From: Dimorphilus gyrociliatus
Taxonomy: Eukaryota; Animalia; Annelida
Assembly (NCBI GenBank): GCA_904063045.1
Contig: CAJFCJ010000060.1
Span: 1 to 64,000 of the forward strand
Direction of reading: 5' to 3'
DNA length: 64,000 nt
Below are positions 14,271-64,000 of the stretch, piece by piece (the first letter of the stretch is position 1; every line of letters starts with the position of its first letter). A program made the translations under genes and the position numbers. Below the pieces are notes generated by a model that was given only the letters and a program-made list of their open reading frames with translations, was not told where the DNA came from and did no database searches.

Positions 14271-14274
14271 CACA

Positions 14275-31124: not shown

Positions 31125-32077
31125 TGTACTTTGTTCTATTGTAATTGTAGGAAGTCCTAGCTCGTTGCTATCAAATTCGTCCTCTCCAATCATTTACCAA
31201 TGTGCCAAAGTACTGGTCCAAATAGAACCTTTCAAGTTCGTCCACAAGTAGTCTTAATAAATGTAATTCCAGTAAAAATTAACCAACAAACACCAGTATT
31301 TCATTCAAAGAATATGTATTTGAGTAAATGAGTTTCTAGTTCTAAACAAGCAAGTTTGAACAACCAGCTGATGGTTAGAAAACTGAACTGACTACTGTTA
31401 AATTCGTAGGGTTTATATACTTTTCCAATAGTTCACAGTTCACAGATAAAAATATTCACACAAACAAATGTAACAATTTGGATAAAGGGAAAGTTCAAAT
31501 ATACTTCCATGTTTGTTACTTTTTCTTTATCTTGGAGAACTTTTGCTCCCTATTTTAGTAGGTCAGAAAGTTGCCTAAGATGTAACAATTATTAATAGAA
31601 GTTGGATTGATTCCTAAACACAAAAATAGGGAAAGGTCAACTTGATGCCGTTTTAATATACAACAAATTATTAATAATAATTGCTTGTGTAAGATAATAT
31701 GTTTCTGTGTAAAGGACTGGTAGGATAAAAGTATTAAACTTAATCATCTAATATAGTATTGTGCATACAATACTGTTCAAAAGTGACAAAAATCTAAAAG
31801 CTCCAAATATAAATAGAATAGTGGAAGATATAATTAATATTCATTAAATATGATGTGTATAATAATTAGGGTTAACATCTAAGTTGTAAAATACTTTTAC
31901 AACTTAGTTTAAATAGTGTATGTTGTAGTTTTAGGCATGTAGACTACTCAATAATACTCTTTCAATATTGCTTTCCATTGATGAATGAAATGTAACAATT
32001 TGGGTGTATTGTGTGCATTTGTGAGCCTGGTTATAAGCTTATGTGTTTAGTACCTACGAACTGCCTAAATGTGTACA
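31125..32077 (-). mobile_element. LTR, inverted near-identical copy of 56456-57396
   Basis: Full-length reverse-complement match; TG...CA termini; flanks aagta/gtgat do not form a TSD. Confidence 0.93.
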
Positions 32078-33910: not shown

Positions 33911-34017
33911 CGGATCAAACAGATATTGGCACGCCTGTTGTATGACCACTTTGAATTGATCTTTGTGAGGAGGCCACCCCATTCAAGCAAAAACCATACA
34001 GATTACCACCTATAAAA

Positions 34018-36760: not shown

Positions 36761-39138
36761 AGGTGACACCTCTCATCATGATGATATTTATCTTTCTACC
36801 ACTAGCAATGGCAAATAAATTTACAACAGGTGCTAACATCACCTTAGAATTTGTACCTCCAATTCAAAACTGCAATGGACAGCAAGTACAACAAACATTT
36901 GATTTAGCAGATCAACCTGAATGTCAAATACTGGAAAAGCCTGTCACAAACATCTTAGCCAATGTATATGAAATCAACACAGCTGATTTAGAAGTTGAAG
37001 CAGTAAAATGTATGGTGAGGAAGAGAGAGAACTACTAAATCTACTATTTTTTTGGTTCAAAGAAGCACAGAGTTGAAAAATTCATTGTAACATAGTCTGA
37101 AGAAGAATGCAGGAAAATGTATCAAGAGAAGAGAGCTTTCTCTGGGCAGAAGCTTCACAAAAGAGGAAACATTTGGACTTTTAATGAGAAAAAAGGAACA
37201 GCATATAATTACCCATCAACAACCTTAGTAACTGAATATGCCACAATCATACAAGTTGGAAAAGTGTATTGGTTACCTTACCAAAACTATGTTACAACAG
37301 ATCTTGATTTTGTAGAAGACTGTCCAGTTCAGCAATGATTTTGCCAAACCATAAATTCAGTTATTATCCTCCAATTGTTGAAGGATAATAGGATAATGGG
37401 ACAAGAATCACCATGGAAAGCAATTTCAAGAAAGGTTTCATGCATAAAATTTGCAGGATATTACTCCTGTCCTGAATATACTATTATGGATAAATATTAT
37501 AAAGACAGTTTCATAGAAGGATTTGGAGGACCAGGTACAAGAATTCTGGTTCCTATTGAAGAAAACCAACTTCTGAGAACAGATCTATCAACATCTGGGT
37601 ATCAAGATGAAGAGATTCTAGAAAATGCAGTATTCAAGTTGGCATCAGAGGAGGAAATAGCTTACTTAAAAAAGTATCAGTCAAAGAGTCTAATGCTATG
37701 GAATGCTCTTCAGAAGGATCATGAAAGCATACCCACATTTAGAGATTGGTACAGGGAAGGAGATAGAACATATCATATGATGATTCAAATACCTGGTCAT
37801 GCTGTAGTAAGAATATATCAGTTAAGACAACCTATAGCATCAGATGTGTGGAGCATTAAAAATGCATACATTGGGCATATGGTGAAGAAAGTAACATTGC
37901 CCATTGCAAAGGAATCAAGAGAAGAAGAGTACAAAGTTACCCACAAATTTGTTGAAGAAAAACTGTTGCCAAAAATAGATGTTTGGTTTCAAGGACCTCA
38001 AGGAAGGCAGTTCAAGTTGAGTAAGAGAAAAATAGGATATCTCCTACTACAAAGAGTTGCAAAATCAGAGGAGGAGAAAGAGGTGAAAAGAAAATTAACA
38101 AAAGTAGAACAAGGGTACATGGAAGAACCCATAAACATTAAAGAGGCAGTGCGAATGGCAGCATTTCTAAAATCAGTTGATAGAAATTTCATGAACTTGC
38201 AACAAACTTTCAACCAGCTCTCAGGAATGTTATGTAGAGCATTCGTGCAGAGGAATAGAATGATAACACTATTAAGCCCTATCTCACCACAGTTACCTAT
38301 AGTTATATCAGAAGAAAAGGGAACTCACAGCACTTGGCTGGGAGATCTCACAACAATTAATTATTGTACACAACACAAGTCTATTCAGATCATATGTGAC
38401 ACAGAAATTATTGTAAAAAATGGAAAATGCTCAAAGCAGCTGCTGGCCAAGTACAAGGAATTAATATTCTCTGTGGAACCTATAACCAATCAGATTCGTG
38501 AAATCCATTTAAAAGATATAATATATGGTGAATGTGATTCTGAGCAAAATCTGTTCAAGGTGAAAGATAATCCTTTGGATAGCCAAGATAGCAATAAACA
38601 AAAAGTCTTCATTCACTACTCTACAAATGGATGCAAATTTAGGAAAGTGGTTGCTCAATCAATAAGATTAAAAATTGCAAACAAACTGAAGGAACCTCAA
38701 TTGGATATAGAAAGACTTTCAGAACTTCTAAAATTGGGCATTAAAGAAGATATTGGAAAGAAAAGTGTACAGCTAGAACAAGTCTTGGACTACATGACAA
38801 ATAAGTTGGATCAACACTCAGATCAATTAAATTATGCAAAGCAAATTGGCATTGACCCTTCAGTAACAAAAACTGGAAGATATTTTATGGCATGGGTGAA
38901 TAAACCACTACAAACTATTATTAATTTCCTTATTCCTGCAACAGCAATGGGTGCAATTGGAACAATATTGTATTGGATAAAAACAAAACAGATTCACAAA
39001 AACATAATGCAAGGAATACTGAACAGATTTAGAAGGACAAAAGATATCCAATCCATTGAAGAAGGTCAACCCTTGAAGATTGTCAGCAGCAGGAAGGGAC
39101 AAGTTGTTATTGCCAATGTTGAGCCATCAGTGGAATGA
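36760..39138 (+). pseudogene. env: Env-like class III fusion glycoprotein, in frame with pol, three premature stops
   Basis: Internal signal LIMMIFIFLPLAMA; AVKC...YYFFGSK...EECRK; LC...RNRMITLLSPISPQLP...STWLGDLTTINYC; C-terminal TM; ORFs at 34018, 37117 and 37375 share a frame and the stops align with Y/L/K of lineage B. Confidence 0.85.
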
Positions 39139-40072
39139 TTCTTTAAGGAGAGGAGAAGTCTGTACACTTATGAACTATAGACAATAGATATGATATTAAT
39201 GATACTTACAACATGTTGCTAGAAGTAGTGGAGTAGATGTTGCCTCTAGGGTAGATGGTACCGAACTACCAGAATCAAGCCCTTTTATAGGCAAAAGATA
39301 AGATATTACATAACCAAACATGTTGACAACAACACCAAGTGTTTATTTACATAAGTATGATGTAACAATTGACCCTTAAGGGTTTACCTACACAAAGTTG
39401 TTGTTGTTTACATCACTATTGCATAATATGATAACCCTTGACCCTGTTTGTTGTGAATAATCCTTATCTGAAGTTAGACCCTTGTTGTTGACACCAATGG
39501 CACAAACAACTGATAAGGAATTGTATATAAGACAGAGCATAGGTAGTAAGAGGCATTCAGTCCTGAATCAACCCTCTTAGTCAACAGGTCTAGTATTACT
39601 TTAGAATACAGTTATATTGTTCTTACAAATTGGTTCTATATTCATCTTTATTCAATTCTACATCTCTTCTAAGTGGCTGACTGCTAATTCGGTTCTATTT
39701 GGACCAGTGCTTACCTACAACCCCATAGCAGGAAAGTACAGTTACTGTGGTTGAAATTACAATTCATTCCTTTTTACAAACTTATAAGTTATAATTTATT
39801 ACAGTTTGCCTTCTATTTAAAGAAGGTGTAGGGCTTAATTCTGACAGTATAAAACTTTGGATTAGTAATTTCCCTTTGGTTCAAATTTTGCTTATATGGA
39901 AAAATAATGAAATAGAGTTTTGGGTTCAGTAAAACTTATAGAGAGAATGAGTTAATTAGAATAAGATAAAAAAAAACACAATTTGATATAAGAGAGATAC
40001 TATTCAAAAACAGTTTGGAGGACATATTTAATTTTAGCCCTTTTTACATAGGTCTATGCTTCAAAAATGGTA

Positions 40073-43000
40073 TTAATAAAATTGTTTTCTCTTTTGTAAA
40101 ATTTTCTTAGTAAGATCTCCAATTGAATAAATGTTATTCTTTGCATTTTCACTGTCCAATCTCTTAAATTCTTTCCATTTAAGGAAATAGTTCTTTTGTT
40201 GTTTCTAAACAAATTAACAATATAGCATGACTTATTTAGTATAATTGTTATATATGATATATAATCAAAAAGTTTCATTCACTTCCTTGTAAATTGTACA
40301 GGCAATGGATGTAAAGTAGAAGCACTCTCTCTAGCAGAAATTATAGACTAAGTTACATTTTTAAATTGGGCCTCTCAATTAAAAAAACAAAGTGTATAAA
40401 ACTTGTGACTATTTGATATTACAATCTAACATTGTAACCAATATCCTTTATTGTGATATCTCCCTCCAGTGCCAATTGATTTTCATGACAAAAATAAAGA
40501 CCATAAACAACATTACGCAACAATATGAAATATTGGAGATTATTATAAAGTTTTTTATTGAATTCTAGTTGATCATAGAAAAAAAATGTTCCATGTTGGA
40601 AAATGTGATTATTTTTGGCTTCTTTATAAAAATTAATGACTGTTTTTTTTTTAAAAGATATTTTGAAGAAATTTTTTAACTAACTAAAAAGATTGTTATA
40701 CAAAACCTCTAACTATCAGATTATCTTCAGCATTTTTAACTGCTGCCATCCTGATCAAAAGAAAGAGATGAAATAAGAAAAATAATTCAAATATAAAAAA
40801 ATAACAAACAATAAAACCTTATTGAGATGATTTTTTCAATTTTCATTTTAATCAATTCACTAAAATCTCTATATGAATTTAGAAAAGGGTTAATAGTAGA
40901 ATTGAGTGGTAGGCATAGAATGATGATTATTAAATAAATGTCATTTCTTAAATGAATATTCAATGCAATTGATATTGTTTCTGTGTTGAAAACAGAAAAA
41001 AAGTTTTATCATTTAACTGATGACAGACATGACCCTAAGGCTTCACAGAAATCCCTATAAAAGAAGAGTCACTGAACACAAAATTCAACATTACTTGCTC
41101 ACCCTTAAATGAGTGTAGAACTGATGTTACTCAATACTAAACTGTATCTAATAGAAGATCTAATTGTTGTTGATTTTATATTCTACACATCTTAAACTAC
41201 CCTACTTGCCAAAGAAAAGCAATAGCTGTTCAAGACACAGTGAATGAGAAAAGTACAACAATTATACAAACCAAGTATTGAAATTGGAAGCCAACCAACA
41301 AGGTTTGTTAAAATTGTAAGGGAAACCATTATATATACTTTTGTAGATGTATTTTTATTGTTATTTTTATGTTTTTTAAATTTTAAATTAGACTTGTACA
41401 CTGCTATCATAATGTGAATGCAAAGGAAACCAACAGTTATGCCAATTATAGGGAAATATAGGCCAAAAATTAGATACATGTAAATCCAATCTTTTACTTT
41501 ATTGCTTTGTATGTGTAAGTTGAAGCAAATTGGTGATTCTGTTATATTATCCTAAATTTGTCAAAAAATGGAAAAGAATCTTTTTATTAACAATATTTTT
41601 TGAATAAATAACAAAAATGTGATTACATCATAAATAAAAATTTGTAAAGTGCACATAAAAAGTGATAAGAGAATGATTAGTATACCAAAAATATACCTAT
41701 ACATTGATTGTATAGGCTTTTTCAATGGATAAATTATTGCTTTATACTTTTCAAGAGTGATTAGTAAATGACTATTACTAGACAGTATAAGGGAGAAAAT
41801 TATAAGCTTTCCAAGAAATTTACAAAGAAAACTATTCCTCCAGAAATCATCATTTTCTATGTAAATTTTATGGTAATGTATATCAACTGAAGCTATAATA
41901 CATATATAAATAGAAGTGAGAAAATCACTCAAATTCAACAAAATTCTATACACTATTATTGAAAAATCTTGTAATAATAGCAAAGAAAAAGAAATTACAT
42001 TTCCAATTAGTCCCAATATGCCAATGATTAAAAACAATGCACGTATATAGCTTGCATTTAAAAGACTTGAACAATTCATAAGAAAACTAGTATTTGGATG
42101 GCAGACAACCTGTCTACCAATATACTTCCAGACCAAACAACATAATTTATATTTTTCAGTAAACAGCTTTTTAATATTTTCAAGAGATTGAATGACTTTG
42201 TTGTCAGTTAAATGAAATGTTGTTCCATTTAAGTGGAGTTCATGCAAATTTTTTAAATTACTAAAAAATGAAGATTCAATTTTTGAAAAATGGCAATTGG
42301 TCAATTTTAAAATTGATAAATGTTTAAAAGAAGATATCTCATAAACTAAATTTGTTATAGGATTATTGGAAAAATCTAGATATCTCAAATGGATGGGATT
42401 AAAACTTTGTACAATGGAGATATTATTCAGTTTGTTATCAGCCAAATCAAGATATTGAAGAATCTTTAATTTGAGAATTGGCTGATGTTGAAAATACACT
42501 TTTTTTACTCTAATTGTTAGAAATACAAGATTGGGAAAATTTTTAAAAATGGATATATTCAAAATTTCATTATGGCTAATTGATAAAACTGTAGTTTGAA
42601 ATAAAATTTCAGAAATATTAAATGTAAAATTGCCAATAATATTGAGTTTTTTGACTGATGAATAATTCAGATTCAAAATTTGTTCACTTTTTCCATTTGT
42701 CTCCTTTTCATTTATTGTACATTTGTAATTGTAAATAACATTTTGTTGTTGGCAGAATTGATTTGATAATAGGTGAATATCACATAATATTTCATCACTT
42801 CCATATTTACAATCAATAACTCCATTGCAAACTCTCTTATTAAAAATATAATTTTTTTCATTTCTACAACTGAAAAAGCCTCTCAGATAGAAATCATCTG
42901 AGTTTTAATAAAATCTAATTTATATTTTCTGCATTAAAGATCAGATTAGAGAAATGACAACTGTCTTAAAATATTTTAATGCAGCATAATTTCTCTAACT

Positions 43001-46000
43001 TTACTTATGTAAATTATTACCACAAATTGATTCATCATCATTATGTAAACAATGATTAATTCCATCACAGACTTGCTCAATTGAAATACAATACTTTGTA
43101 CCAGTGCATAAAAATTCGTTTGGTTTACAATGTGTTTTTTGACAGTTTGAAAAATCATTGAAAGGGGGATACATTTTTCTTTGGGTATTACCAGATGAGT
43201 CATAGCTTAAAAGACAAGGAGTAGTTTTAACTTCATAGTGAGAACAGAATTCATATTTCTCATCTTGTCCATCTGCACAATCTAATTGAAAATCACAAAC
43301 TCTATTCAAATTAATGCATTTCTCTCTACAAGGGAATTGGACAGCTCTTCTACAATCTGTCAAGTACAGTTTTACTGATAAATGTGTTTCAATGACAAAA
43401 GAAATAAATATTTTACCTTTTCTAAAATTTTCAGTGATAGCTTGACTATTCAAACAATTCTCATCACTATTATCAAAACAATTTTTTTCATTATTACATA
43501 CTTTCACACTGTCTAAACATTGTCCAATTGTACATTTTCTGAAACAGAAGACATTTTACTTAATTATTAACTGAGAATATCATGAAGTTTATGATTATAA
43601 AGTGTAATAGTTAGGCAAGTAGATAAAGTTGACTACATCATGAATGCTATCTATATTTATGTCACATTCCCCTGACAAGGACTTAATCATCATTTCAATC
43701 TCACATTCAAAAGAGTTGGCTGGGATAAACTTGGCTTTGTCATTTCTGTCTTTATCATCAACCTAACATATACACATACACATAATTATGTATATATTAC
43801 ATTTCATTGGTTTTACATTGTCTTCTGTCTGTTGAAAAATTTCAAGTATATAAAATTTTTGACAAAGTCATGCAACATAAATGTATTATTGAAGAAATTA
43901 TTCAAAATCCTACTGCAGAATTCTTCATCTGAACCATCTGAGCAATCCTTTATAAAATCACAAACTAAAGTATAGCTTATGGATACAGGTGACGAAACAC
44001 AATGAAATAGTGCAACTTCTGAATGGATTGAGCAGTTGCTTTCATCTTCAGACAATGGACAATCTGCCTTTCCATCACAAACATATACTATATTGATATA
44101 TATTTGATTATGAGTACAAACAAAAGTATTTTCATGATTAGTTAAACTGAAATTAAATGTATTGAGTTTTAATTGAATATTTCCAATTAGGCTATTTTCT
44201 GAACCTAAAACATAATCATTTATTAAAAAAATAGATTTAAAACATTTCAAGTTGTAGGCCAGAATATTTGATTACTTTTAATAGTTTGGCACATGTAATA
44301 TGTCTGTGATATATCATCACAATTAATCTGCATTATCTTCCAATCTGAAGATAATTTTAAAAATTAAAGTCTATTAATCTTGGAAGTAATTTACTTATGA
44401 GGCGTTCTCTTATGTCTATTAATTCATCCTATAAAAGAGGTAGATTGTATGAATCAGTTAAAAATTTCATCATCTAAAACTCAAAAATTATTTACTGTAG
44501 AAAATTCTAAACAATTGCCTTTAAATTTCTTCAGAGTAACCACTTTGTTTTTCAAAAAAGAAAGAGCAACTTCTTTAGATTCATCAGCGGATGTACCCTG
44601 TAAATGCAGAGTATAATATGTATATATCACATGACTCAGGCTGTCCTGTGGACAATTGGAGGTTGACTTAAGAACTAATCCCAAAAACTATCAACTATAT
44701 TGAAAGATTGTGTTAGAATTCAGGAATATTCTTGTAGATGTAGAGTCAAGACCTCACTCATCATGAACAAATGCTATTCAGTCTCTTTAAGTCTACTGCT
44801 GTATATGGTGAATGATAAAATATTTACCATATATATTTGTAAGATATAGCTTGGATAAAATGAAAGAGGAATGTTGGACAATGTTACATTGATTTTCTTT
44901 CCTTTAAAGTCTTTAGTTTTTAAAGCTGTTTGGCAAAGATAAAAGAAATTTTTTCCCCTTTTCAAAAATTAAAAAATGTATACAACCATTATATACTCCA
45001 AAGTTGAATGCAAATTCACCAATTGAACTAAAATAATATGAAAATATTTCTACAGTTGTAGATAAATCTTGAAGGATATTTGTAGTTGGAAAATCAGCCA
45101 AAGTAGAATTTAACTTTTCACAATTGTCTTTCATTTGAGAAAAAGACAATGGCACATTCTGCTTAAAAAATGTATAGCAAACATTGTTAAGTTGAAAAGA
45201 CTTGTTTGCAGAACATGACAATTCTAATTTTTAAATGAAAAATATTCAATACAATAAGTGATGATAGTCTAAATTTGTATTTTACCAAAGTTACTACAAC
45301 CAAGCATAAAATTTGTTATGGAAATTTCTCTGTTGATAGGGAAAAAAACTATTATTCCAATTCTAAATTGCAGTTTGGGCAAATCAACTAACCCTAGACT
45401 CTTTTTAAAAAACCAACAATCAGTAATGTGTTTAGCATCTGGTTTACAGTACAAATAGGCTGATAAGTATGATGAATGTCTAGTGCCACCTCCAATATAC
45501 CATGCATTTTTATAGCCACGACTCTTACAAAAAACACTGTGTTCATGATGATAAACAAAACCAAAATTATCCCATTTTTCATGTAATCTATAGTTTAGAA
45601 CACCATAAATCTCATTAAATTGATTCATAGCAGTCTGTTGAAATTTGTAGTCTAAATCATGAGAAGAAAAAGAAGAGGAAGAGTTAACTGTTGTTTGTTT
45701 TGTTTTGTTTGTTTGTTTACTGTTTTCATTTATTTGCCTCATACAATTTGGCATGAAAATACGATAATCATTTATTTTTTCAGGTAAATAATTACAATTT
45801 AAAAATGTCTTTGATCTATATGAACAAGTCATCATTGATTTTAAATTTAAAGTTTCTTTATAACTTGGAAAAATTGTTTGACAATATTTCACATTTTCAA
45901 CAAGAAATAAATTAATACATAATTGTTTACAAATCAAATTTATATGTCTTTTATTAATAATTTTGAAAATTGGAGGAAAAAGTCCAAATGTTTTTGACAG

Positions 46001-47479: not shown

Positions 47480-48500
47480 CCATTTTTCCTTTCCTCCTTT
47501 GATATATTTTCTTTCTGTTAACTCATGTTCAAACTTTTTTTAGACTGCTAAACACTTGCGTTCAGTAATTCCATAGTTTTTTTCCAAAGCTGTCAACTTC
47601 TTGCTTGCCCATCTTATGATGACTCTGCACATTCCTTTATCTGTTCATGCTCCATTGCTACAGTCCTTTTAATCCATCAGTAGCGTTGATGTTTTCTCAC
47701 TATACTTTGGTATAAATTCTAAAATTCGGCATTAAAGAAGATATTGGAAAGAAAAGTGTACAGCTAGAACAAGTCTTGGACTACATGACAAATAAGTTGG
47801 ATCAACACTCAGATCAATTAAATTATGCAAAGCAAATTGGCATTGACCCTTCAGTAACAAAAACTGGAAGATATTTTATGGCATGGGTGAATAAACCACT
47901 ACAAACTATTATTAATTTCCTTATTCCTGCAACAGCAATGGGTGCAATTGGAACAATATTGTATTGGATAAAAACAAAACAGATTCACAAAAACATAATG
48001 CAAGGACTACTGAACAGATTTAGAAGGACAAAAGATATCCAATCCATTGAAGAAGGTCAACCCTTGAAGATTGTCAGCAGCAGGAAAGGACAAGTTATTA
48101 TTGCCCTTGTTGAACCATCAGTGGAATTATGCTTTAAGAAGAGGAGAAGTTTGTACACTTATGAACTATAGATAATAGATATGATATTAATGGTACTTAC
48201 AACATGATGCTAGAAGTCTAGTATTACTTTAGAATACAGTTATATTGTTCTTACAAATTGGTTCTATATTCATCTTTATTCAATTCTTCATCTCTTCTAA
48301 GTGGCTGACTCCTAATTCAGTTCCATTTGGACCAGTACTTACCTACAACCCCATAGCAGGAAAGTACAATATCATTGATATAAATCTCAATTTCATCACT
48401 ATAAATATCTTTGAATATTTTACTCATGATTCACTGCAAAATCTGTGGAGAGTTTTTAAATCCCATTGCCATTGTGATTAAATGCAAAGGCTGTCCTTTT
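47480..48500 (-). mobile_element. Relic of an unrelated Ty3/Gypsy RT/RNase H, interrupted by a lineage A fragment
   Basis: MAMGFKNSPQILQ.IMSKIF...IEIYINDI at 48369-48500; FIPKYSEKT and RWASKKLTALEKNYGITERKCLAV at 47500-47715. Confidence 0.7.
47716..48368 (+). mobile_element. Second copy of the lineage A 3' end (env TM tail, PPT, internally deleted LTR)
   Basis: Near-identical to 38727-39740 but lacking ~39227-39589. Confidence 0.93.
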
Positions 48501-48965: not shown

Positions 48966-49702
48966 TGTACTTAGTTGTATTGTAATTGTAGGAATTTCTG
49001 CTTCTTCAGAACAGTATTCGTCTTTCCAATCATTTATCAAATTACCAAAGTACTGGTCCAATTAGAACCTTTCAAGTTCGTCCACAAATAGTCTTAACAA
49101 ATGTAATTTTGGTAGAAATAATTCAACAAAATACCAGTATTTCGTCCGAAGAATATGTATTGAGTAAATGAGTTTCTAGTTCTAAACAAGTAAGTTTAAA
49201 CAACCAGTTAATGGTTAAAGAACTGAACTGACAAGCTGAGGAAATGCATTTCCTTTTATACATTTTCCAAAGCTTGGGTTCAAGTGGTCAAAGGATTACA
49301 AAGTTGAAATCTGACGGTCTCATAATTCTCATGTAACAAAAATATGAAAGACTGTTATATCACACATATAAAATATAATCCTAAGATTAGGGCCACATGC
49401 CAAACATGTGCCACAGCAAGCAGGCCTGTCTCATCAGCATCTGGTGTTTGACCTGCATCTTTTCCATGTTCTTTGTTCCTTTGTTAATTCCCCAAGTAGC
49501 CACCATCTGTTACAGTCAAAGAGTCTATTTCTTACGAAATAGAGTTCTTTCTAAAGTACTAAAAACTAACTCTACAAAATAAAAGTCTTTCTAAAGTTCC
49601 ACCACTATAATTCCTACAAAATATAAGTATTTCTATAGTTGCACCAGTCTAATTGCTATAAAATAGAAGTCTTTCTAATGTACCCTTATATCTAAGTGCA
49701 CA
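48966..49702 (-). mobile_element. LTR, inverted copy of the 61066-61700 type
   Basis: TG...CA termini; reverse-complement match to 61100-61700; U5 shared with the 56456 LTR; flanks tccac/aatcc are not a TSD. Confidence 0.9.
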
Positions 49703-49718
49703 AATCCAATATATTAAA

Positions 49719-52700
49719 TTGGCAAAAAGAGCAGAAATTTACTTTAATAATCCAAGGAGAGAAGATGAAAATGAATTCAAGCAATTCAAAAAAAGATTTG
49801 ATAACAATAACAGTTATGCAAATGATAATGACCATAAATTTACACCTTTTTCTCAAAATAGGACCCATCAATACCAAAGATCTGGAAATGAGAGAGGTAC
49901 CTTCAACAGATTAATTCATGCTGAACCTGATCAACCTAATGAAAGAGAAACTTCCAAGGGTACAATGGCAATATTTAATCTTAAAGAGGAGAAAGTTGCA
50001 CATTTCAAGTGCACATCTCAAATAAAAGGAAGAGATGATTTCCAATTTCGTTTGAAGAATCATAATGGAAGAGAAGTGATTGCATTATGTGACACAGGAG
50101 CACTCATGTCATTTATCACTGAAAAAAAAATTAAATTATTGGACCAAAAATGGGTAAAGAAAGAAACCACTTCATTACCATTAATAACTTCAGCTGATGG
50201 AAATGCTTTGAAATCTAAAGGTAAAGCAAAACTTAACAGACAATTTGCTGGAAGAATAATGGAACAAGAATTCTTTATAATGGAAAAATTGGATATGGCA
50301 ATAATTTTGGGATGTGACTTCTTAAGAAAGTCTGGAGCAATAATCAACTTTGCAATTAAACAAGTTTCACTCCCATTCTTTATAAGAAAAGGAGAACCCG
50401 TTAAAACTTTTCTACAAAAAAGACAAAAGGATCAAACACACAAAAGAAACCAAGGGAAACCTAACAAACTAACTGTAGGAATGATTGGACAATATGCTCA
50501 TGAACATGATGACCCATCTGAAGTGTCAGATAGTGTGGATTCAGATATGGATATTACTGAGCCAGATACTGGATATGATACAAGTAATACTTATGGCTCA
50601 AATGAAACTTTGAGTTCTTCTGAAAATTATGATACAGAGATGAGTAATGAACCAGAGCATAACTCAGACTCAGATTTGGATATTGTTAATGGTATAAAGT
50701 CATCTGAAGAAGAAGCCAATAATATTTTTGAGTCTGACAATGATTCAATCATTATTATAGATTCATCTGAAGAAGAAAATGGCAACATAACAGATTCACA
50801 CAATAACTCAGTTATTATCATTAACTCATCTGCTGAAGAAACTGAAACTGAATCTGAAGAATTAATTACAGAAATGGAAATGAAAACACAATACATAGAA
50901 TTAAAGGATGGAATAACTATCAAAGTTGAAAAAGAACAAATGAAAACTCCAGCAACTCCTGAGATAGAAGAATTACTGCTGGAAAGTGTTGAGTTTGAAC
51001 ATATGTCTAATCAAAATATACACCACATTAATTCAAATACAGTAGAAATTGACAACTATTTACATGTGTCCAAAAATAATCCTGACAAAATCAGGGAAGA
51101 ATTGAAAGAAATCATCAAGAATTATGAAGACATTATTGCTACAAATCAAAATGACATTGGCTCACCAGATGTTCCACCAATGGCAATTGAATTATTGGAA
51201 GATGTGAAACCTTTTAAACAAAGACCATACAGATTACCACCCAACAAACAACAGGAATGCAGGGAACAACTTAATGGATTATTAGCAAATGGTTTGATTA
51301 GAGCAAGCAAAAGCCAATGGGCTTCACCAATCGTTTTTGTGAAAAAGAAAGAAGGAACATTCAGAATGTGTGTAGATTACAGAAAACTTAACAAGTATTC
51401 AAAAAAGAATTGTTATCCAATCCCACACCAAGAAGATTTATTTGACAAACTTGGAGGAGGACATAAATACTTTTCCATCTTGGATTTGACAAGTGCATTT
51501 CACCACATCCCTATCAAGGAAGAAGACAAAGAAAAAACTGCTTTCATAACACCATTTGGTCTATTTGAATTTAATCGAATGCCTTTTGGTTTAGCAAATG
51601 CACCCTCACACTTCAGCTATATTATGGCAAATTTTGTCATAAATGGATTAGAAAATTTCTGTATTAACTATATGGATGATATTATTGTTTTTACAAAACA
51701 TTGGAGGAACACTACACAAGTCTACAGAAACTGATGGAAAGAATCAAAGAAAAGGACTTCAGAATCAAGTTAAGCAAATGTGCATTTCTACAAGAATCAG
51801 TACAATTTCTTGGTCATAGAATTACACAGAATGGTATTGAAACTGATCCAGAAAAGATTCAAAAGATAAAAGATGCTGAATTACCAATGTTTGCAAATAC
51901 TTTACTAAGTTTTGTAGCATTTTGTGGTTATTATAGAAGATTCATCAAGGACTTTGCAAAAATTACAAAACCATTGAGAGAATTATTAAAACTACATCAG
52001 AAGACTGAAAGACTAAAATGGACTACAGAAGCAGAGAAAGCGTATCAGACACTAAAGAAATCAATGACAGAACCACCAATACTTCAACTACCTGATTTTA
52101 GTAAACCATTCTATCTAACAACAGATGCCTCCAATTATGCAGTTGGTGCAGTTTCAGAACAAGAATGGGAAGAAGATGGAAAGAAAATAAGAAAGCCAAT
52201 TTCTTTTGCTTCAAAACTCCTAATCAATACACAACTAAGGTATGCAGCTTATCAAAAAGAAGCTTTTGCAGTCTATTGGGCAGTACAAAAATTCTCCCAT
52301 TACTTGCAGTATAAGAAATTTTTTCTTTACACTGATCACCAAAATTTGGTACAAACATTTGTACAAAACAAATTAAATTCAAGTACTGTTAAATGGGTTG
52401 TGGCACTTATGGATATGGACTTTGAAATAATTTACATACCTGGAAGAACCAACAGAGCAGACTGGATATCCAGAATTGGAGAAACTGATGAAGTTATTGA
52501 TTTCCGAAATTTACTAAAGGAAAGACTAAATGAAGAAAAACAAAATGGCAATACAATTCCACAATTAGCAGAAAGAAAGGATATGCTTAAATGCTTTTAT
52601 ATTGATACAGAAGATTTAGAAGACTTAGCTGATTGTTTGGATGACATTTTAGACAATAATGATGGTTATGATGAAGAAGCAGATGACAAAAAATTACAGA

Positions 52701-54033
52701 TCATGAAATTAAAAAATAAACCTGTTGAGATAAACTTCTACACTGAACAAGTTTTGGATGACACCCTAATGAAAATTGTAGAAAAATTGGAAGGAGCAAA
52801 TATTGATGTTGAAATGTTCAAGGAATACAAAAATTTTATTGAACATATGTTTGTCAAAGATGATTTAGTATGGTATCTGAATGGTTGTCAACCATTACTG
52901 GTAATTCCACTACTAACTTTAACAAACCTACTGAACCAAATACATCAACATCAAATATTTGAACACTATGGTGTAGACATAACAATTCATACTTTGGAAC
53001 AAGCTTTCTGGCATCCACAACTTAAGAAAACAATTAAAGACCATATAAAGAATTGCAAATTCTGTGAACAATTAAGAGCACCTGGAAACAAACATCTATT
53101 GGTTGAAACACCCCATCCAACTCTACCAATGCAAAGAATTGCAATGGACATAATGGGACCACTAACAGGACATGAATCTTACAAATACATACTTGTCATT
53201 ATAGATCACATGTCAAGATTTACAAATCTATTTCCATTAAAAACTCAGACAGCTGAAGAAATATCAAAACACTTGTTTTTTAACTACTTTCCAATATTTG
53301 GTATTCCAGAAGAAATTCTCACAGACCAAGGACAGAATTTTCTGGGAGAAATATTTACAGAGATGGTTACATCAATGGGAATAAGGAAAAAAAAAACAAC
53401 AGCATTCCATAGCCAAAGTAATGGAATGGTAGAAAGAAAGAATTTGGAAATTCGCAGAGCACTACATAAACATGTAGTTATGGAACAATTAACAGATTGG
53501 ACAAGACAATTACCAATAATTCAAACATGCTTAAACCAAATTCCAGTGGGAAGCACAGGCAAAACTCCACATGAAATATTATTTGGATTGAAGAATAGGA
53601 ATGTCTTAGATGTGTTAATGGAAGTTCCAAGATTAGAACCAACAACAAAATTTCTATTTGATAGAAAGCATGAAATGGAAGAAATAAGAGCAACTGCATT
53701 GTGCAAATCTGTCATGAAAAAGAAGGGATATAGAGATAGAGTAAACAAAACTATCACAAGAAAACCCCCAACTTACCAAATTGGTGAATGGGTACACATA
53801 AAAAACGAACACATTGGACAAGGAATGAATAGAATAAATACAAGCAAATGGAGTGGACCATACATTGTAACTGCTACTGATACTACAAAATGTCTTTATG
53901 AATTGGAAATATTAAATGGCAAAAGAAAATTCTACCATGCTAGTAGACTAAGATTGGCTAACAAACAACCAACTAGAGTTAACACACTCAAGGTAGAGAA
54001 ACAAGAAAGGAAAGTTGGAACACTTCCTATAAG
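49719..54033 (+). CDS. pol: Gag-tail/Pol polyprotein of lineage B (PR, RT, RNase H, IN), one -1 nt lesion in RT
   Basis: LCDTGA protease, ILGCDFL, YMDD, TDASNYAVG, HHCC, intact D-D-E (IAMDIMGP, LTDQGQNF, SNGMVER), WSGPY; frame change at acaaaacattg ~51690. Confidence 0.95.
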
Positions 54034-56400
54034 AGGATCCATTGTTTACACTCTGCTAGCTCTCTGCTTATTAAACTTGGTTCAGGGAAATGCATCAATA
54101 ACAAAAGCAAACATAACTGTGAGAATGCTTCCTTCAGTACAATTCTGTCAAGGGCAACAAGTACATCAGTCATTTGATCTGGCTGATGAACCAATTTGCA
54201 CATTCAAAACTAAACAAATGACCAAAATAATGGCAAATATTTATGAAATTAAAGCTGATAATTTGGCAATACAAGCTGTTAAGTGTTTGGTAAAGAGAAG
54301 AATCAACTTTTACACTCATTACTTCTTTGGAGCAAAGAAACACAGAGTTGAAAAACAAACACTTACCTTAAGTGACAAACAATGCAGAAAAATGTTATTG
54401 TCAAAAAAGACCTTAAATGGACAAAAACTCATTGAAAAAGGAAACCTTCTAATGTACAATGAAAACAAAGGATCAAATTACAAATGGCCAAGAACAACAG
54501 TGGTTGAAGAATTTACAACAATTCTCCAAATTGGCAAAGCTTATTGGCACCCAAGTCAGGATAAGATAACAACCAACTTGGAATATTTAGAGGACTGTTC
54601 TATCAAACATAAATTTTGTAGAACTCTGGATTCCATTATTATTTTCAATCCTCAGAAAGGACAAAATCTCCTTGGTCATGAATCCCCATGGAAAGCAGTA
54701 TCCTACAATGTAGAGTGCATTAAGCTTGGAGGATATTTTTCATGTCCCAACTATGCAATAATGGATTTACCTTATCAAGATAGATATATCAAAGGATATG
54801 GTGGTCCTGGAACAAGAATTTTAGTACCCCAGAAGGAATACGACTTATTAAGAACTGATCTTACAAATTCAAATTATGCTGACAACAGAATGATGGCAGA
54901 TATCAAATATAAAATCATTTCAAACAAAGAAGTTTCAAGATTGCAGAATTATGATGGAAAGAAATCAACTTTGAGAAAAGCAAATAATACAGAAATACAA
55001 AATATACTAACCTATAATGATTGGTATAGAGATGGTGACAAGACTTATCATATGCTGATCAAAAATCATGTAACACCACTGGTTAGGACCTGGATGGTCA
55101 GAGAAATAATCTCACCTGATATATGGGATATTAACAACAAATACATACTCAAAATGTTGAAAACAACCAAAATAGAACCTGCTAGAATGGCAAAAGCAGA
55201 AGATTTTGAACTCAACAAGAAGAAAATTAGTTTCAATCCATTACCAAGACTGGACACTTGGTACCAAAGTCCAAAAGATAAACAATTTCAAACACATCAA
55301 GCAAATGGAAAATTTACACTTTTGCAAAGAACACCAAAGAAGCATAAAATGGAGGAGAAGAGTATCAGAAAGCATACAAAATTTCACAAAATAGACATAG
55401 CAGATGCTATTCGAACATCTGCTTTATTAAATAACATTGATAAAAATTTCCAAAATTTACAAACAGTTTTCAAACAAGTATCACAACTTCTATGCAAAGA
55501 ATTCATTATGAGAAACAAGATGGTAGCATTACTCACACCATTGGCACCTCAACTACCAACAATACTTGGATCTAAGCATGGAATGCACAGTACATGGCTT
55601 GGTGATCTAACAACCTTAAATACTTGTACAGAATTAAAATCAGTTCAAGTAGTGTGTGATACAACAATTATCACCAAAAATGGATTATGCTCCAAAGAAT
55701 TTCTCATCAAGTATAAAGATCTCTTATTGTCAGTTGATCCAATACTCCATCATGCTTACCACATAACAAAAGAAGATATAAGATATGGAGATTGTGACCA
55801 AACACAACACCTGTTCAAAATTAAGAAAAACCCACTGGACATTGAACACAATCAACATGCAATGTATTCTGGAAAGAAAACATTCATCTATTACACAAAG
55901 AAAGGATGCAGATTTCAAACTGCAGCAGCACAATCAATCAGAATGAAAATAAGCAATGAAATTGAAGAACCAAAATTAGAGGTTGCTAGACTTACTGAGT
56001 TAATACAACTTGTATAAAAGAGGATGTTGGTAAGAAACAATAACAAGTTCAACAAGTTTTAGAATACATTCAAGACACTTTAACAAGACATAAAGAGCAC
56101 ATAAACTTTGCTAATGATTTGGGCATTGATGCTGCTTTGTCTAAAACTGAACATATATTCTCATCATGGGCCAGGACACCTTACAAAACACTCATCAACA
56201 TACTTCTTCCAATAACAATAATCATTGGAATTGGGATTCTGATTTGGTTTCTTTGGAAGAAAGACTGGAAAAGAGTACACTTCACCAAGCTAGCTAAGCT
56301 TTTAGCTAGAAAAGAAAAGTTACCTACAGCCCCAACAGCTGAACCAGAAGAAATACCACTACAAACTTATCCAACATTCAAAAAGGATGGTGACCACTGA
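54034..56400 (+). CDS. env: Env-like class III fusion glycoprotein (~790 aa), in frame with integrase; one frameshift and one stop near 56010-56045
   Basis: Signal IVYTLLALCLLNLVQG; AVKC..R...YFFGAK...QCRK; NYKWPRTT; LC..FIMRNKMVALLTPLAP...STWLGDLTTLNTC; C-terminal TM ILLPITIIIGIGILIWFLW plus cytoplasmic tail. Confidence 0.88.
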
Positions 56401-57396
56401 TTGTTTCAAGCCCAAGACCTTTCGTGGAAGCAAGGTCTTAAAGGAGTGGGATGTTTGTACACATTTAGGCAGTTCGTAGGTACTAAACACATAAGCTCGT
56501 AACCAGGCTCACAAACTCACACAATACACCCAAATTGTTACATTTCATTCATCAATGGAAAGCAATATTGAAAGAGTATTATAGAGTACTTACATACCTA
56601 AAACTACAACATACACTATTTAAACTAGTTTATTTTAAACTAGATGTTAACCCTAATTATTATACACATCATATTTAATGAATATTAATTATATCTTCCA
56701 CTATTCTATTTATATTTGGAGCTTTTAGATTATTGTCACTTTTCAACAGTATTGTATGCACAATACTATATTGAATGATTAAGTTTAATACTTTTATCCT
56801 ACCAGTCCTTTACACAGAAACATATTATCTTACACAAATAATTATTATTAATAATTTGTTGTATATTAAAACGGCATCAAGTTGACCTTTTCCTATTTTT
56901 GTGTTTTGGAATCAATCCAACTTCTATTAATAATTGTTACATCTTAGGCAACTTTCTGACCTACTAAAATAGGGAGCAAAAGTTCTCCAAGATAAAGAAA
57001 AAGTAACAAACATGGAAGTATATTTGAACTTTCCCTTTATCCAAATTGTTACATTTGTTTGTGTGAATATTTTATCCGTGAACTGTGAACTATTGGAAAA
57101 GTATATAAACCCTACGAATTTAACAGTAGTCAGTTCAGTTTTCTAACCATCAGCTGGTTGTTCAAACTTGCTTGTTTAGAACTAGAAACTCATTTACTCA
57201 AATACATATTCTTTGAATGAAATACTGGTGTTTGTTGGTTAATTTTTACTGGAATTACATTTATTAAGACTACTTGTGGACGAACTTGAAAGGTTCTATT
57301 TGGACCAGTACTTTGGCACATTGGTAAATGATTGGAGAGGACGAATTTGATAGTGACGAGCTAGGACTTCCTACAATTACAATACAACAAAGTACA

Positions 57397-58876
57397 ATTA
57401 TCGCTCATTATTTTATTCTGGGCAAAGCATTTAAAAAAAGAATTTAGAATGTTATTAATACTAAGTGATTTTTTAACAGCTACATACGTCACAGCTATTG
57501 CAAGTGTAGCAACATATTATAAAAGTCAATATATTGAACACGATAGATATTGGCGTCAGAGTATCCTCTGCCGAGTACTCGGTCAAATTATGACGTTTTC
57601 TCTACTACTCTCTGCTGTTAGTCTACTATTGCTAACGCTAGAAAGATACGAAGCAGTTATTAATCCTTTAAAGCAATCTAAACTTTTGGCCTATAAACAT
57701 AAAATTGTTGGAGTAGCATTCATTATTTGTCTACTAACAACAATCATACCATATCTTCTGTATGGCAATGTGAGTATAAGGGAAAATGGAAACAGACACA
57801 CACAAAAACCAATTTTTAAACACTTATTAGATTGATACCATGGCAACGCCAATTTGTTTTAGTATACACATAAGGAGTGAAAAGACTGATGGATGGCTCT
57901 ATTCTTTCATAATGTTTATTATAATATTTATAATTAACAATATTATTGGTATTTTATATATAATAATTTTAATTAATATCAACAAATCATTTACAAAATT
58001 TCATCATCAAACAACAACAATAAGGCAACAAAAAATCTTTAAAATTGTCTTTCTTGTCATTCTAACAAATATGATCTGTTGGCTTCCTATGTCAATACTT
58101 GGTTTGTCTTGGTTTTTTCAAGTTCAAACTGTTCAATTTTCACTCTTAATTTCTCTTCCTTTCAGCAACTTTATCAGCAATAACGAATATTTATTTTAGT
58201 AATGACACTTACTCAATAATAGTCGCTTTATTATTGCCAATTAATTCCATACTTAATCCATGTTTATATTCTTCTGGTGATATTAGTAAAATTATTGAAG
58301 ATCGGAGAAAAAAACTTGAATTCAAAAGGTTTTCTCTCTCTCTACATATTTATCATGTTTATCAATCTCTATTTGCACAAAACAGACAACAGCTTATTGA
58401 ACATTCTAAAAATAACCTACTTGAAAGAGGTAGTTAATTAATTAATTAGTTAATTAATAATTGAAATATTTTTATCAGTTTTGAAATTCTTCCTTCTTTC
58501 CCAAGAAAATTGTCTTATTCAAAAGACGCCTCATAGACAGTTTAAAAGTCTTTATACAATAAAACATTTGTCCAAAAGCTACAATTGCTTAAAAGTTTTA
58601 AAGGACATTGTCTTTGGAATATCCTATTGCCACAACAATTCTTTAACATTTAAAAAGGAAATTTCAATAGATAATATTTATTTTGATGTAAAATTTTATG
58701 TTCATTCAAATATTCCAATATGAATGATTTTTTCATTTAAAACTTTCAATATTTCTTAGGAAGAAAGTCAAAGATATTTTGTCATTTGGGAGGAATTTGT
58801 AAAAATTGAAGATCATTTGCAAAAGAGAGATATTTTTTCTATTGGAAATATTACGAAAAAGATATTAGTGTGGTGA
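57397..58876 (+). pseudogene. 3' half (TM1-TM7 plus kinase-like tail) of a second LGR/GRL101-like GPCR; ectodomain absent from the window
   Basis: LSDFLTATY, RYWRQSILCRVLG, LTLERY, MICWLPMSIL, LPINSILNPCLY; introns at the same positions as in the 40-47 kb paralogue; begins exactly at the LTR end. Confidence 0.85.
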
Positions 58877-59499: not shown

Positions 59500-60900
59500 T
59501 ACCATGAATTCACCAAATTGTGTACTATCTTTCTTTGAGAATGCTTGTAACTAGTTTTAAATATCTAAAACTGCTTTTACAAACTGTCTACTCTGCTATT
59601 GAACTCTCATATTGTTACTTGCTTAAGTGTTATTATTGTGAATAAACCATTTTGATTTAAACATTTGTTTAATCTTTTGATTCCATTGGCCTCTTCTTTG
59701 CCTAGTTGAATTGGCCATCCTTTTTAAATATTTCATATATATATATATGCATTTCTGCATATTCCTCCATTTTTATCATGTACTCACTAATTTCCTTGTC
59801 ATTTTTAATTGTTTATTATTATAAGTGCCATTGTTCCTTTAGAAGTTTCTCTTTCAGTGGATTCATCAGGTTCAGTAAGTATTAGTCTGTTAAACTTGCC
59901 TCTTCCCATTGCTGTGTTTCCCATTCTTTGATGTGGTTGAAATGTATTTTGGGTAAAATTTATGTTTGGATTAATTGGGTTGTTGTCATTTTAGCAATCC
60001 AGCTGATCTTCTCTTTGAATTGAATGCAGAATTTAAACTGCATGACTTTTTAATCAAGGACATTAAAAAGGATGATGCAAGATATATCATTTTTGGTGAT
60101 AATCATCAAATTGATCTGTTGAAGCAGAGAATGCTTCAAAGTGATTTCTGAACCATTTCAACAGCTTTTCAAAATCCATGCATTCATAAAAAAGAATGGA
60201 AATTTAAAGCAGGTTACATTAGTTTATATTTTTATGAGTCATAGAAAGAAAAAATCTTATAAAGCCATACTCAAGGTAAAATATATGTCTTATTTTCATG
60301 AATAACATTATATTTTTTAGGTGTTAGCTGATTTTTATATGGTCATCAAACAAATAAAATAGTTGTTGATTTTGAAGAAGCATTATGGAATTTTTCAAAA
60401 CACATTTCCATAATTTCCAACAACAATGTGTTTAAGAAAATTCAAGTAAGTTTTAAACAATCACTCAATAATTGAAAAGGTCTCCTTTGATACAGAGCCT
60501 TGGATATACAAAAGATTATAAAGAAAAAGATTATGAAGGAAAAATGCTCAGAAAAATTGTGGCTTTACCATTTTTACCTGACAATATAATTAAAAGACAA
60601 TTTAAAATTATTTAAAGAGTAGATATGAGATGTCTTCATTAATAAATCAATAGATGTCAATTTGTTTAATTTGAAATCATCCCACAAAACAAAAAATTTT
60701 GTTTGAATGTCAACATACTTCTTCTTTAGATGCTTATAAACCCTTTCTCACAATCATTATTGGTTGTAATTGATAAACCAAAAACTGACCAATTATTTGG
60801 TTTCCACAATTTATTTTCCATCCAATGTGTTTTGAAGTATTCTAAGAGATCCAAGAACTTATTTTTTTCAAAAAGCTCTTTCTTTAAGCTGTCAAATGTT
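59500..60900. mobile_element. Scrambled FLYWCH-MULE fragments on both strands
   Basis: VVDFEEALW, VFKKIQ/gt and KMLRKIVALPFLP on plus; FLYWCH and TNND..W-like pieces on minus; caactaggcaaagaagaggccaatgg resembles 63630. Confidence 0.6.
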
Positions 60901-60924
60901 GGTTGAATAATAGAAGAATTACAG

Positions 60925-61701
60925 ATCCCAACATACTCAACTATGGAAATTGACCAAGAAGCAATACCTCTTCAAAACTATCCAACATTTTCAAAAGAAG
61001 GTAATAGAGTCATTGTGACAAGTCCCAGACCTTTCGTAGAAGCAAGGTCTTAAAAGGGTGGGATATCTTAGATATAATGACATATCAATACTTAGACTTT
61101 AGATATAAGGGTACATTAGAAAGACTTCTATTTTATAAGAATTAGACTGGTGCAACTATAGAAATACTTATATTTTGTAGGAATTATAGTGGTGGAACTT
61201 TAGAAAGACTTTTATTTCGTAGTGTTAGCTTTTAGTACTTTAGAAAGAACTCTATTTTGTAAGAAATAGACTCTTGACTGTAATAGATGGTGGCTACTTG
61301 GGAATTAACAAAGGAACAAAGAACATGGAAAAGATGCAGGTCAAACACCAGATGCTGATGAGACAGGCCTGTTTACTGTGGCACATGTTTGACATGTGGC
61401 CCTAATCTTAGGATTATATTTTATATGTGTGATATAACAGTTTTTCATATTTTTGTTACATGAGAATTATGAGACCGTCAGATTTCAACTTTGTAATCCT
61501 TTGACCACTTGAACCCAAGCTTTGGAAATGTATAAAAGGAAATGCATTTCTCCAGCTTGTCCGTTCAGTTCTTTAACTGTTAACTGGTTGTTTAAACTTA
61601 CTTGTTTAGAACTAGAAACTCATTTACTCAATACATATTCTTTGGACGAAATACTGGTATTTTGTTGAATTATTTCTACCAAAATTACATTTGTTAAGAC
61701 A
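60925..61701 (+). mobile_element. Env tail, PPT and 3'-truncated LTR (~61066-61701) of a lineage B relative
   Basis: EAIPLQNYPTFSKEG, gaagcaaggtcttaaaagggtggga, reverse-complement match to 49090-49700. Confidence 0.88.
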
Positions 61702-61849: not shown

Positions 61850-63095
61850 AAAAAAAATGAAAGTCATTCAAATGAAAGTCAAAATGAACTGGGTGCTATG
61901 AATACTGAACAGTTTCATGAAAAAAATCAACAAGTAAATAACTTGTAACTTTTCTCAGTTGAAAAATTGTTAAAATTTTGTTATTTCAGTTGAGACTATC
62001 CTTTGATTTTGAAAATTGTATTGAGGATATATCTGAAGAAGAAAATAATAATTCAAATAACTGTGATCAAGATCAAAGAGTTGACATTCAAGATGAAGTA
62101 TCATTTGATACAAGCAAGGAAATAAGTGTTTATGAAACAAATGAAAATGATTTTGAAATTGTCAAGAATGGAAGTAAAAGAGGAAAAGATATTTTATTGC
62201 ATAATAATTTTTCCTTCTCACTAGCAACAAAAAGCGTTAACATTTGGAGGTGTTCACAAAGATCTAAAAATGAGACCTGTAATGCTTATATTATTCAAAA
62301 AGGTTCAAAATTTCTAATAAAAAATGATCATAATCATTCTAATTCTGGAAAGAATTTAAAACAAAGCATAAAAGCAAGACTTCATTTAAAGTGTCTTACC
62401 TTGGAAAGAAATGAAAAGTCTGGAAAACGTTTAGCTGAAGATACTGCAATGGAATTTTGTAATTCAATTAAAAGTTTGCCTACAATTGAATCATTTAAAA
62501 GAACAGCAAATAGATACAAACAAAACCTTACACCTAAGCACCCAGAAGAATTATTTTTTCAACTAGATATGAATGAAATACCCAAACAATTTTTAGTGCA
62601 AGATATTCAAGGAAAAAACCATAGAAACATAATTTTTGGTACCAGTCATCAAATTAGCTTATTGTCCAAATGTAAAATATGGTTTGTTAATGGACCATTT
62701 AATGTACTTAGACCCCCATTCTATCAACTATTTTCCATACATGGCTTCATTAAGAAAAAGGATGAATATCATCAAGTTCCACTTTTGTTTATCTTAATGA
62801 GTGGAAAGAAGAAGAAACACTACTTGGAAGCTTTCAGAGTGAGTAATTAAAAAAACTTGCTAGAAAAAATGCAAAATTATTCTGTTCTTGAAGGAAATAG
62901 AAAGTATAATGATGGAGAATAAACTGCAAAAGCTTGTATTAGACTTTGAGGCAGGCTTGTGGAAAGCAGTTACTGAAATTTTTCCTGAAGTTGATTTACA
63001 AGGATGTGCTTTCCATTTTAAGCAATCAATTTTCAGAAACATTCAGGTATAATTAATTCAAAATTAAAGTATAAATAATTTTTAGCCTTTTTTTT
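61850..63095 (+). mobile_element. Second, 3'-truncated copy of the 32-33.9 kb FLYWCH-MULE
   Basis: Near-identical to 32078-33110; open across the position of the 32405 frameshift; first catalytic D is N (WFVNGPF). Confidence 0.92.
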
Positions 63096-63099
63096 TTAT

Positions 63100-64000
63100 A
63101 AATGAAAAAGCTTTTGTATGTGCAATTTGTTTAGATTCTTGGATAGGGAATGATCCTAGGATTTAATTACCATAAGAAGTGTGTTGGTGGTTAGTTTTTG
63201 TTGAAGAAAGCTTATTTGAAAAACAACCAATCAGTATTAAATTTTTAGATTCCACTAAATTTGAAGTTATAAAATATGGTAGCCAGAAAGGAGAGAATTT
63301 ACTAGTTCACAATGGCTTTTCTTTCAATATAAAATTTAAAACAAAGGAGAGAACTGTATGAATTTGCAGCAGAAGAAATAAAAATCAAAGATGTCCTGCT
63401 AGTGTTAATCAACAAGGCAGTATCTTTGCTAAAGGAAGTCAACAGCATAATCACGATGGAAAAAGAGATCTACAAGTTGGTGTTGCAATAAAAAGGGAAT
63501 TGAAAAACTTATGCTAAAAAGATTTGGCTATAAGTGGAAGGAAGCTGGCTGAAACAGTTCTTTTTAATAACCAGGATAATACTGATTTTCTACCAAACCT
63601 GCAATATTTAGAAAGGATGGCCAATTCAACCAGGTAAACAAAGAGGCCAATGGAACCAAATGATTATGACTTTGAATTAAATATGGATTTTATATTAGAC
63701 AACTTTCTAAAGAAAAACATCTGTGAAAACAATGAAAGGATTCTTATATTTGGAACAGACTATTAGTTTGAATTCTTGAGTAAATCAGTGCATTGGTTTG
63801 TTGATGGAACATTTAAAATTGTAAAAAAAAACCATTTTACCAATTATTGACTATCCAATCTTATGTGAAAAAGAATGGCAACATGAAACATGTGCCTCTG
63901 GCCTTCATTTTCATGACATTGAAACACAAGAGAGCTTATAAATTGGCAGTTAAGGTAAGTGTAATAACTAATTATATTTTTAGTTTATTAACTTTTAAAT
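63100..64000 (+). mobile_element. Another degenerate FLYWCH-MULE family, running off the window end
   Basis: CAICLD zinc-finger piece, GSQKGENLLVHNGF...ICSRR...CPA...HNH, WFVDGTFK, VPLAFIFM. Confidence 0.8.

Follow-up and report, generated by a model that had tools for sequence, protein, structure and literature searches.

What a gene for a viral-type envelope glycoprotein is kept for in an annelid genome, and whether it still serves an infectious particle, are questions raised by a locus in Dimorphilus gyrociliatus. We analyzed positions 1–64,000 of contig CAJFCJ010000060.1 (assembly GCA_904063045.1; hereafter the window), in which a retroelement occupies 49703–57396. An earlier note had described this element as near-intact, of the Ty3/gypsy type, and equipped with a class III envelope glycoprotein (Env) of the herpesvirus gB or rhabdovirus G kind. 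We find that the copy in the window is a 5′-truncated, frameshifted member of a young, multi-copy Ty3/gypsy family. This family very probably encodes Gag, Pol, and a class III-type Env in one frame, and such an Env would likely let particles enter cells.

The host genome (77.9 Mb) contains at least 74 env matches (69 scored of 387 candidates). By Env identity, these are grouped as A1 (97–98%, the subfamily of the window copy), A2 (85%), A3 (~73%), B (~47–48%), and C (38–40%), and the ectodomain is spanned without a stop in 15 A1/A2 rows and in 17 of the 21 family C rows. The element family is young and has recently multiplied. At least 40 near-full-length matches to the 3′ long terminal repeat (LTR) are 95–100% identical (best 40 of 767 candidates scored), and paired LTRs are 99.79% identical in A1, 99.36% in A2, and 99.84% in C, with target duplications of 5 bp in A and 4 bp in C. 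Sister copies display the hallmarks of Metaviridae, namely direct TG...CA LTRs, a tRNA primer site, a polypurine tract, and a target duplication, and gag, pol, and env are all present at the family level. Complementarity links the primer site to host tRNA-Ser genes, with 13 pattern matches versus 0 for the control, and ARAGORN placed Ser-AGA and Ser-CGA genes at two of these 13 matches. The Ty3/gypsy assignment holds, given the pol order of protease, reverse transcriptase (RT), RNase H, then integrase (IN) and an RT that is closest to that of Ty3. Specifically, the RT of sister copy L074 (~98% identical to the window copy) matches Ty3 RT best in the PDB (E=3e-62), followed by another Pol (E=6e-34) and murine leukemia virus-type entries (~1e-25). 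A BEL/Pao-type pol, as in Belpaoviridae, was not found, as the RT resembles that of Ty3 and all Pfam families that scored are of the gypsy/retroviral type. Likewise, Pfam revealed no chromodomain in family C pol or in the integrase tail of the window copy.

Some features of the element ends are also worth recording. At the 5′ LTR-gag junction of four loci (L075, L073, L078, and L084), the open gag frame already starts within the LTR. The tRNA-Ser primer site is set 4 bases away from this LTR, and an ATG extends over its initial bases. The polypurine tract is separated from the LTR by 4 bases in family A versus 1 base in family C. One of these loci, L075 (G000:C91), is internally deleted and lacks most of env, yet it has LTRs that are 99.8% identical and a target duplication. 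Thus, env-less derivatives have also inserted recently.

The assignment of Env to class III is carried by profiles built from the genomic copies. A profile of 15 genomic env copies recovered 22 proteins at E<=1e-3 among 1.84 billion, and seven of these 22 relatives exceed the curated threshold of a class III family in Pfam: P0005 and P0019 as Rhabdo_glycop_FD, and P0015, P0016, P0017, P0018, and P0020 as Monjiviricetes_fusion. When an A2 profile was compared with PDB sequences, the 24 best rows were gB (best E=7e-13), followed, at about E=2e-3, by glycoprotein entries that matched in the fusion-domain region at the N terminus; an A1 alignment gave one weak match. In the Atlas search, PF24664 was returned at 0.89 for env, which we treat as a lead only. 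Fourteen cysteines are kept in A1, A2, and C. The sequence motifs quoted in the earlier note are all present (AVKC at 54275, YFFG at 54320, QCRK at 54380, KWP at 54482, QLLCK at 55484, and LGDLT at 55598).

Structure prediction points the same way. An AlphaFold monomer model of Env (predicted local distance difference test score 71.4, predicted template modeling score 0.36), which ends at the break before the stem, was compared with the PDB using Foldseek, and all 35 listed rows were gB (best E=8e-13). Against BFVD, the rows comprised gB, rhabdo-, nyami-, and chu-like G, and entomopoxvirus proteins, and a structure search of 48,161 chains made without Foldseek placed class III fusogens at all of ranks 1–11. 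Env is therefore predicted to fold as a class III fusion glycoprotein, with a gB-like ectodomain between the signal segment and the transmembrane (TM) helix. In this model, the fusion module appears closer to rhabdovirus G and the crown appears gB-like. The earlier note had proposed this comparison and had expected FFG at a hairpin tip and a central helix followed by an LGD...C segment. The monomer model agrees with these expectations: gB and rhabdovirus G are matched, the helix and segment are present, and by predicted secondary structure, rather than coordinate measurement, YFFG lies between strands 60–78 and 81–92 and KWP ends the loop before strand 135–154. With the class III fusogens (PF00974, PF00606, and PF24664), the window Env shares a fusion domain nested in a PH fold, a central helix, and a beta-rich crown, but identity is only ~10% and the window Env has an extra inserted region.

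This insert of 150 residues is folded in the model, and a search with this part alone gave nothing specific; we also found no published description of such an insert in open-access text. It may serve attachment, since it occupies the place where relatives have a linker or a furin site, and the furin motifs of P0017, P0018, and P0020 are indeed located at its position. No R-X-K/R-R furin motif occurs in four family representatives, and the features of an F-type errantivirus (a class I F-like Env with a furin site and fusion peptide) were not found. With class III matches throughout the profile, PDB, and Foldseek comparisons, the claim that this Env is of the gB/G type rather than the F type stands.

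The arrangement of gag, pol, and env in a single frame is evident from several sister copies. Two A2 loci each have a stop-free frame that reaches from gag into env (1,967 and 2,075 codons), one locus has such a frame from RT to the end of env (1,741 codons), and 26 of the 31 distinct A/B loci examined have an open integrase-Env junction. We infer that one polyprotein of ~2,500 residues is translated, in which the hydrophobic segment after integrase would act as an internal endoplasmic reticulum signal. Signal peptidase would then release a type I glycoprotein with three N-glycan sequons and 14 cysteines. Gag-Pol could stay briefly membrane-anchored until the protease of the element cuts, which would free the Gag and Pol parts. 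Env would trimerize, and its YFFG and KWP loops would enter the target membrane as in vesicular stomatitis virus G and gB.

Env is under purifying selection. The ratio of nonsynonymous to synonymous substitution rates (dN/dS) for env is 0.10–0.18 among A1, A2, and A3 (RT, 0.02; IN, 0.014), and constraint within Env is strongest in the fusion and PH region, where the value is 0.06. From this strongest constraint, fusion activity is probably retained whether or not the element is infectious.

Several results count against a polyprotein whose Env mediates entry. Compared directly, the window env matched no Pfam family and no PDB sequence, and three word-based protein searches with env, at near and longer lengths, returned nothing beyond P0001 and P0003. 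The integrase-Env junction is closed in the remaining five of the 31 A/B loci, and none of the fetched loci has an unbroken frame from gag to the end of env. Moreover, purifying selection marks a maintained protein, not infectivity. We give an even chance to the alternative that Env is kept for a role apart from infecting other animals, such as soma-to-germline transfer inside the host or membrane-coupled assembly, and that the element is a retrotransposon rather than a virus. Env identity drops in step with pol (A2, 85%; B, 48%; C, 38–40%), and such tracking within one genome fits vertical inheritance. A survey of env-carrying elements (Chary & Hayashi, eLife 2026; PMC13524379) likewise argues, in the part of it available to us, for long vertical descent and calls infectivity unclear. 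The present data nevertheless fit both uses alike.

Env could also be made from a spliced or subgenomic message, with the open integrase-Env junction being incidental, although we consider this rather unlikely. Drosophila gypsy and retroviruses express Env from a spliced message, and making Gag, Pol, and Env in equal amounts from a single frame would seem wasteful. A methionine codon precedes or sits within the signal segment in A2, B, and C. In contrast, there is none before the signal segment in A1 (including the window copy) or A3, which argues against separate initiation of Env. Furthermore, a separate open reading frame (ORF) would not need a junction that is stop-free in most A/B loci, yet this openness persists between families that are only 48% identical in Env. 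We thus prefer the polyprotein route. Finally, the proposal that env represents part of a viral glycoprotein that was captured, or a neutrally decaying passenger, is highly improbable, as the broken window copy and the many copies with indels are outweighed by the dN/dS values, the full-length stop-free ectodomains, and the 14 retained cysteines, which already contradict it.

Family C departs from this layout by carrying a second protease. Its order is gag-PR1-RT-RH-IN-PR2-acidic spacer-Env (PR, protease; RH, RNase H), as seen at L088:1248-6551 (-), L084, and L031, and its LTRs are 635 bp long. Catalytic motifs are kept in both proteases (DSG and DTG), which are 31% identical to one another. 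PR2 is 68–72% identical to the protease of lineage A, to which the window copy belongs, versus 54–57% for the family B protease, and the cassette of PR2 and spacer, aligned over 377 columns, shares 46% identity with the protease and spacer region of that lineage. In a small tree that leaves its exact place unresolved, PR2 clusters with the proteases of A and B and far away from PR1 of family C itself, while among the three families it is C that has the most distant RT and IN. The IN-PR2 junction (probe L088:1700-2200) recurs in at least 40 matches at 99–100% identity (best 40 of 124 candidates), and the stretch from IN to Env is one open frame in six of 15 loci. A programmed frameshift at this junction was considered and rejected because indels fall at scattered places, though two recur in 2–4 copies.

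The two-protease layout is thus plain in the genomic copies, whereas its function, like infectivity, is predicted. Pairwise dN/dS values for PR2 are 0.18–0.26, and splitting three pairwise values gives a rough branch value of ~0.4, with dS near saturation. Since this branch value exceeds that in A, the PR2 cassette may be a tolerated recombination product. We tentatively entertain a fuller scenario in which an actively spreading clade of single-polyprotein gypsy viruses has a class III Env that includes an attachment domain of its own, 150 residues long. In this scenario, family C, the youngest, took the protease and spacer of the window lineage and gained two working proteases, the second of which would separate Pol from the membrane-anchored Env precursor. 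Exact-phrase matching in open-access text found no description of a second protease in an LTR element. The window itself holds a truncated family C copy at 13102–14303 (-), a 3′ remnant consisting of a 3′ LTR (13102–13736 (-), 96% identical) with a polypurine tract and an env fragment at ~14187–14303 (-). Broken family C copies can also mimic protease-Env ORFs, as seen at L032.

A gypsy element with a gB/G-type Env is a correct description, but it has already been published, and the window family adds an example rather than a concept. The survey mentioned above (PMC13524379) lists 1,512 env-carrying Ty3/gypsy elements, including 221 ENV_HSV entries. As presented in its accessible portions, these HSV/gB-type errantiviruses share with the window family a Ty3/gypsy pol followed by a class III Env, a signal segment, fusion loops, a TM helix, the lack of an obligatory furin site, and multiple copies. 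For one polychaete ENV_HSV row, the LTRs are ~630 bp, which is the LTR length of family C, and the primer site, TCGACTGCGCCA, agrees in its 12 bases with that of the window clade. Therefore, the window lineage or one near it is probably already in that catalogue, as matched by LTR length and primer site rather than by sequence. None of the 30 of 221 ENV_HSV rows and 15 of ~74 annelid rows that were available is an ENV_HSV entry with 940-bp LTRs, and no env sequence motif occurs in the supplements searched (cells up to 400 characters).

The window family differs in that gag, pol, and env share one frame, whereas PMC13524379 describes three ORFs; in the available text of that source, the terms “fused,” “single ORF,” “splic,” and “frameshift” have 0 matches and “protease” has 1. 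It also differs from the HSV/gB-type errantiviruses described there by its fusion module closer to rhabdovirus G, its gB-like crown, and its Env insert. We regard the in-frame C-terminal Env and the insert as variant traits of the window family. The planarian Burro/GYPSM1 elements likewise carry an Env matching mononegavirus glycoproteins in frame within one gypsy polyprotein, but there, according to the sections consulted, the element is 30 kb long and has Env after gag and before protease, rather than 9 kb long with Env after integrase, and env is expressed from an ORF of its own in other gypsy-like elements (PMC6431247). Atlas virus and nematode belpaoviruses also have one Gag-Pol-Env polyprotein with a C-terminal Env; however, the portions seen of PMC9094657 describe a Belpaoviridae RT and a class II phlebovirus-like Env in Atlas virus, in contrast to the Ty3-like RT and class III Env of the window family. 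Exact-phrase matching in open-access text gave nothing relevant on a single gag-pol-env polyprotein processed by signal peptidase.

For the window copy itself, the description “near-intact” was too strong. It begins at the equivalent of position 1732 of a 9,185-base sister copy, such that ~81% of the element is present and ~1.7 of 9.2 kb is missing, including the 5′ LTR, the primer site, the capsid, and ~260–280 gag codons. Its gag is interrupted at 49703 by an inverted LTR of sister subfamily A3, and among the LTR, primer, and target-duplication features, it keeps only the polypurine tract and the 3′ LTR. Pfam places protease, RT, RNase H, and integrase in Ty3/gypsy order (Table 1). The earlier note had read one frame from integrase to the cytoplasmic tail, and this is borne out only in part. 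A 1,445-codon frame does run from RT through integrase and the one hydrophobic segment into 642 residues of the ectodomain, which include 14 cysteines, but it ends at 56017, and the TM helix and tail form a separate 118-codon frame. Env is broken by a frameshift near 56011, a stop at 56041–56043, and a frameshift near 56394; RT has a frameshift near 51694, and a short out-of-frame patch lies at ~55345–55376. The search for full-length copies that the note had suggested yielded sister copies with paired LTRs and the 9,185-base copy.

Sister copies carry 0 to 36 small indels each, scattered and mostly private, and some breaks of the window copy may thus be assembly errors. If the breaks are real, the window copy would be a passive template at most. 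With its 5′ truncation and frameshifts, it also falls outside the intact-ORF rule for inclusion in the partly accessible PMC13524379 catalogue, which concerns the copy and not the family. The gag frame of sister copies reaches ~280 codons further upstream than the window remnant, and the A2 gag of L078 matches Retrotrans_gag (E=2.7e-5). The distance from protease to RT is ~810 nucleotides in the window copy versus ~275 in family B, and the stem, TM helix, and tail are continuous with the ectodomain in sister loci L003–L006 and L008–L010. Two candidates for the missing 5′ LTR were rejected. The inverted LTR at 48966–49702 is ~84% identical over 270 bases to the own-family LTR versus 96.6% to A3, and the LTR at 31125–32077 has no primer site after it.

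Table 1. Features of the element at 49703–57396 and the adjoining LTR, in window coordinates
Feature	Position	Strand	Basis
LTR of sister subfamily A3, inverted	48966..49702	-	96.6% identical to 3′ LTR of locus L021; no target duplication
3′ gag remnant, without capsid-coding part	49703..50015	+	~99% identical to sister copies
Aspartic protease, DTG at 50091	50016..50381	+	Pfam RVP E=4.7e-5
Acidic Ser/Asp/Glu-rich spacer, protease-RT	50500..50960	+	Translation
Reverse transcriptase, YMDD at 51669; 3′ end approximate	51192..51900	+	RVT_1 E=4e-24
RNase H / connection domain	52010..52429	+	RT_RNaseH E=8e-30
Integrase: zinc finger, D,D35E core, C-terminal domain	52910..53989	+	Integrase_H2C2 E=3e-10, rve E=1e-9, motifs
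Internal signal-like hydrophobic segment, in frame with integrase	54029..54088	+	Sole hydrophobic stretch of 1,445-codon frame (54029–54085)
Predicted Env fusion domain nested in PH-like domain, residues 41–257	54209..54859	+	
Candidate fusion loops YFFG and KWP	54320..54331; 54482..54490	+	
Inserted, predicted folded Env region, residues 269–420	54893..55348	+	Absent from distant relatives
Predicted central helix (437–482) and gB domain IV-like crown (499–612)	55397..55924	+	
Env stem, TM helix (56188–56259), cytoplasmic tail	56044..56400	+	Detached from upstream frame in window copy
Polypurine tract, 4 bases 5′ of LTR	56440..56451	+	Sequence reading
3′ LTR, 941 bp, TGTAC...GTACA	56456..57396	+	Ends set by target duplications of sister copies

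The window is a nest of this element clade. A second env-bearing, 5′-truncated element, of family B, lies at ~33914–39800 (+) with integrase in frame with Env (~47% identical), and its env tail is repeated at 99% identity at 47714–48390, just upstream of the 49703–57396 element. Scrambled pieces of env, gag, and LTRs from related subfamilies also occur at 8464–8746, 9336–10533, 2844–3478, 59812–59903, and 60916–61700. The LTR at 31125–32077 (-) is 97% identical to the 3′ LTR at 56456–57396 and abuts ORFs at 31996–33628, which we take to resemble a Mutator-type transposase; these ORFs recur at 97–99% near 62060–63095 (region 61963–63900). Exons of a rhodopsin-family receptor border the 3′ LTR at 57365–58437 (7tm_1 E=5e-10), and a similar gene with leucine-rich and LDLa-like repeats, recognized by eye, is located at 41561–44271. 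Elsewhere, at L033:1-1395 (-), a 465-codon intronless ORF that by eye looks like a pyridoxal phosphate (PLP)-dependent CoA acyltransferase adjoins a family B copy.

At least five related subfamilies thus coexist in one small genome, with Env 38–98% identical, and show selection on a class III Env. They raise the testable question of how an Env that is buried ~1,700 residues into one polyprotein is matured. If its second protease is active, family C would represent a new retroelement layout.

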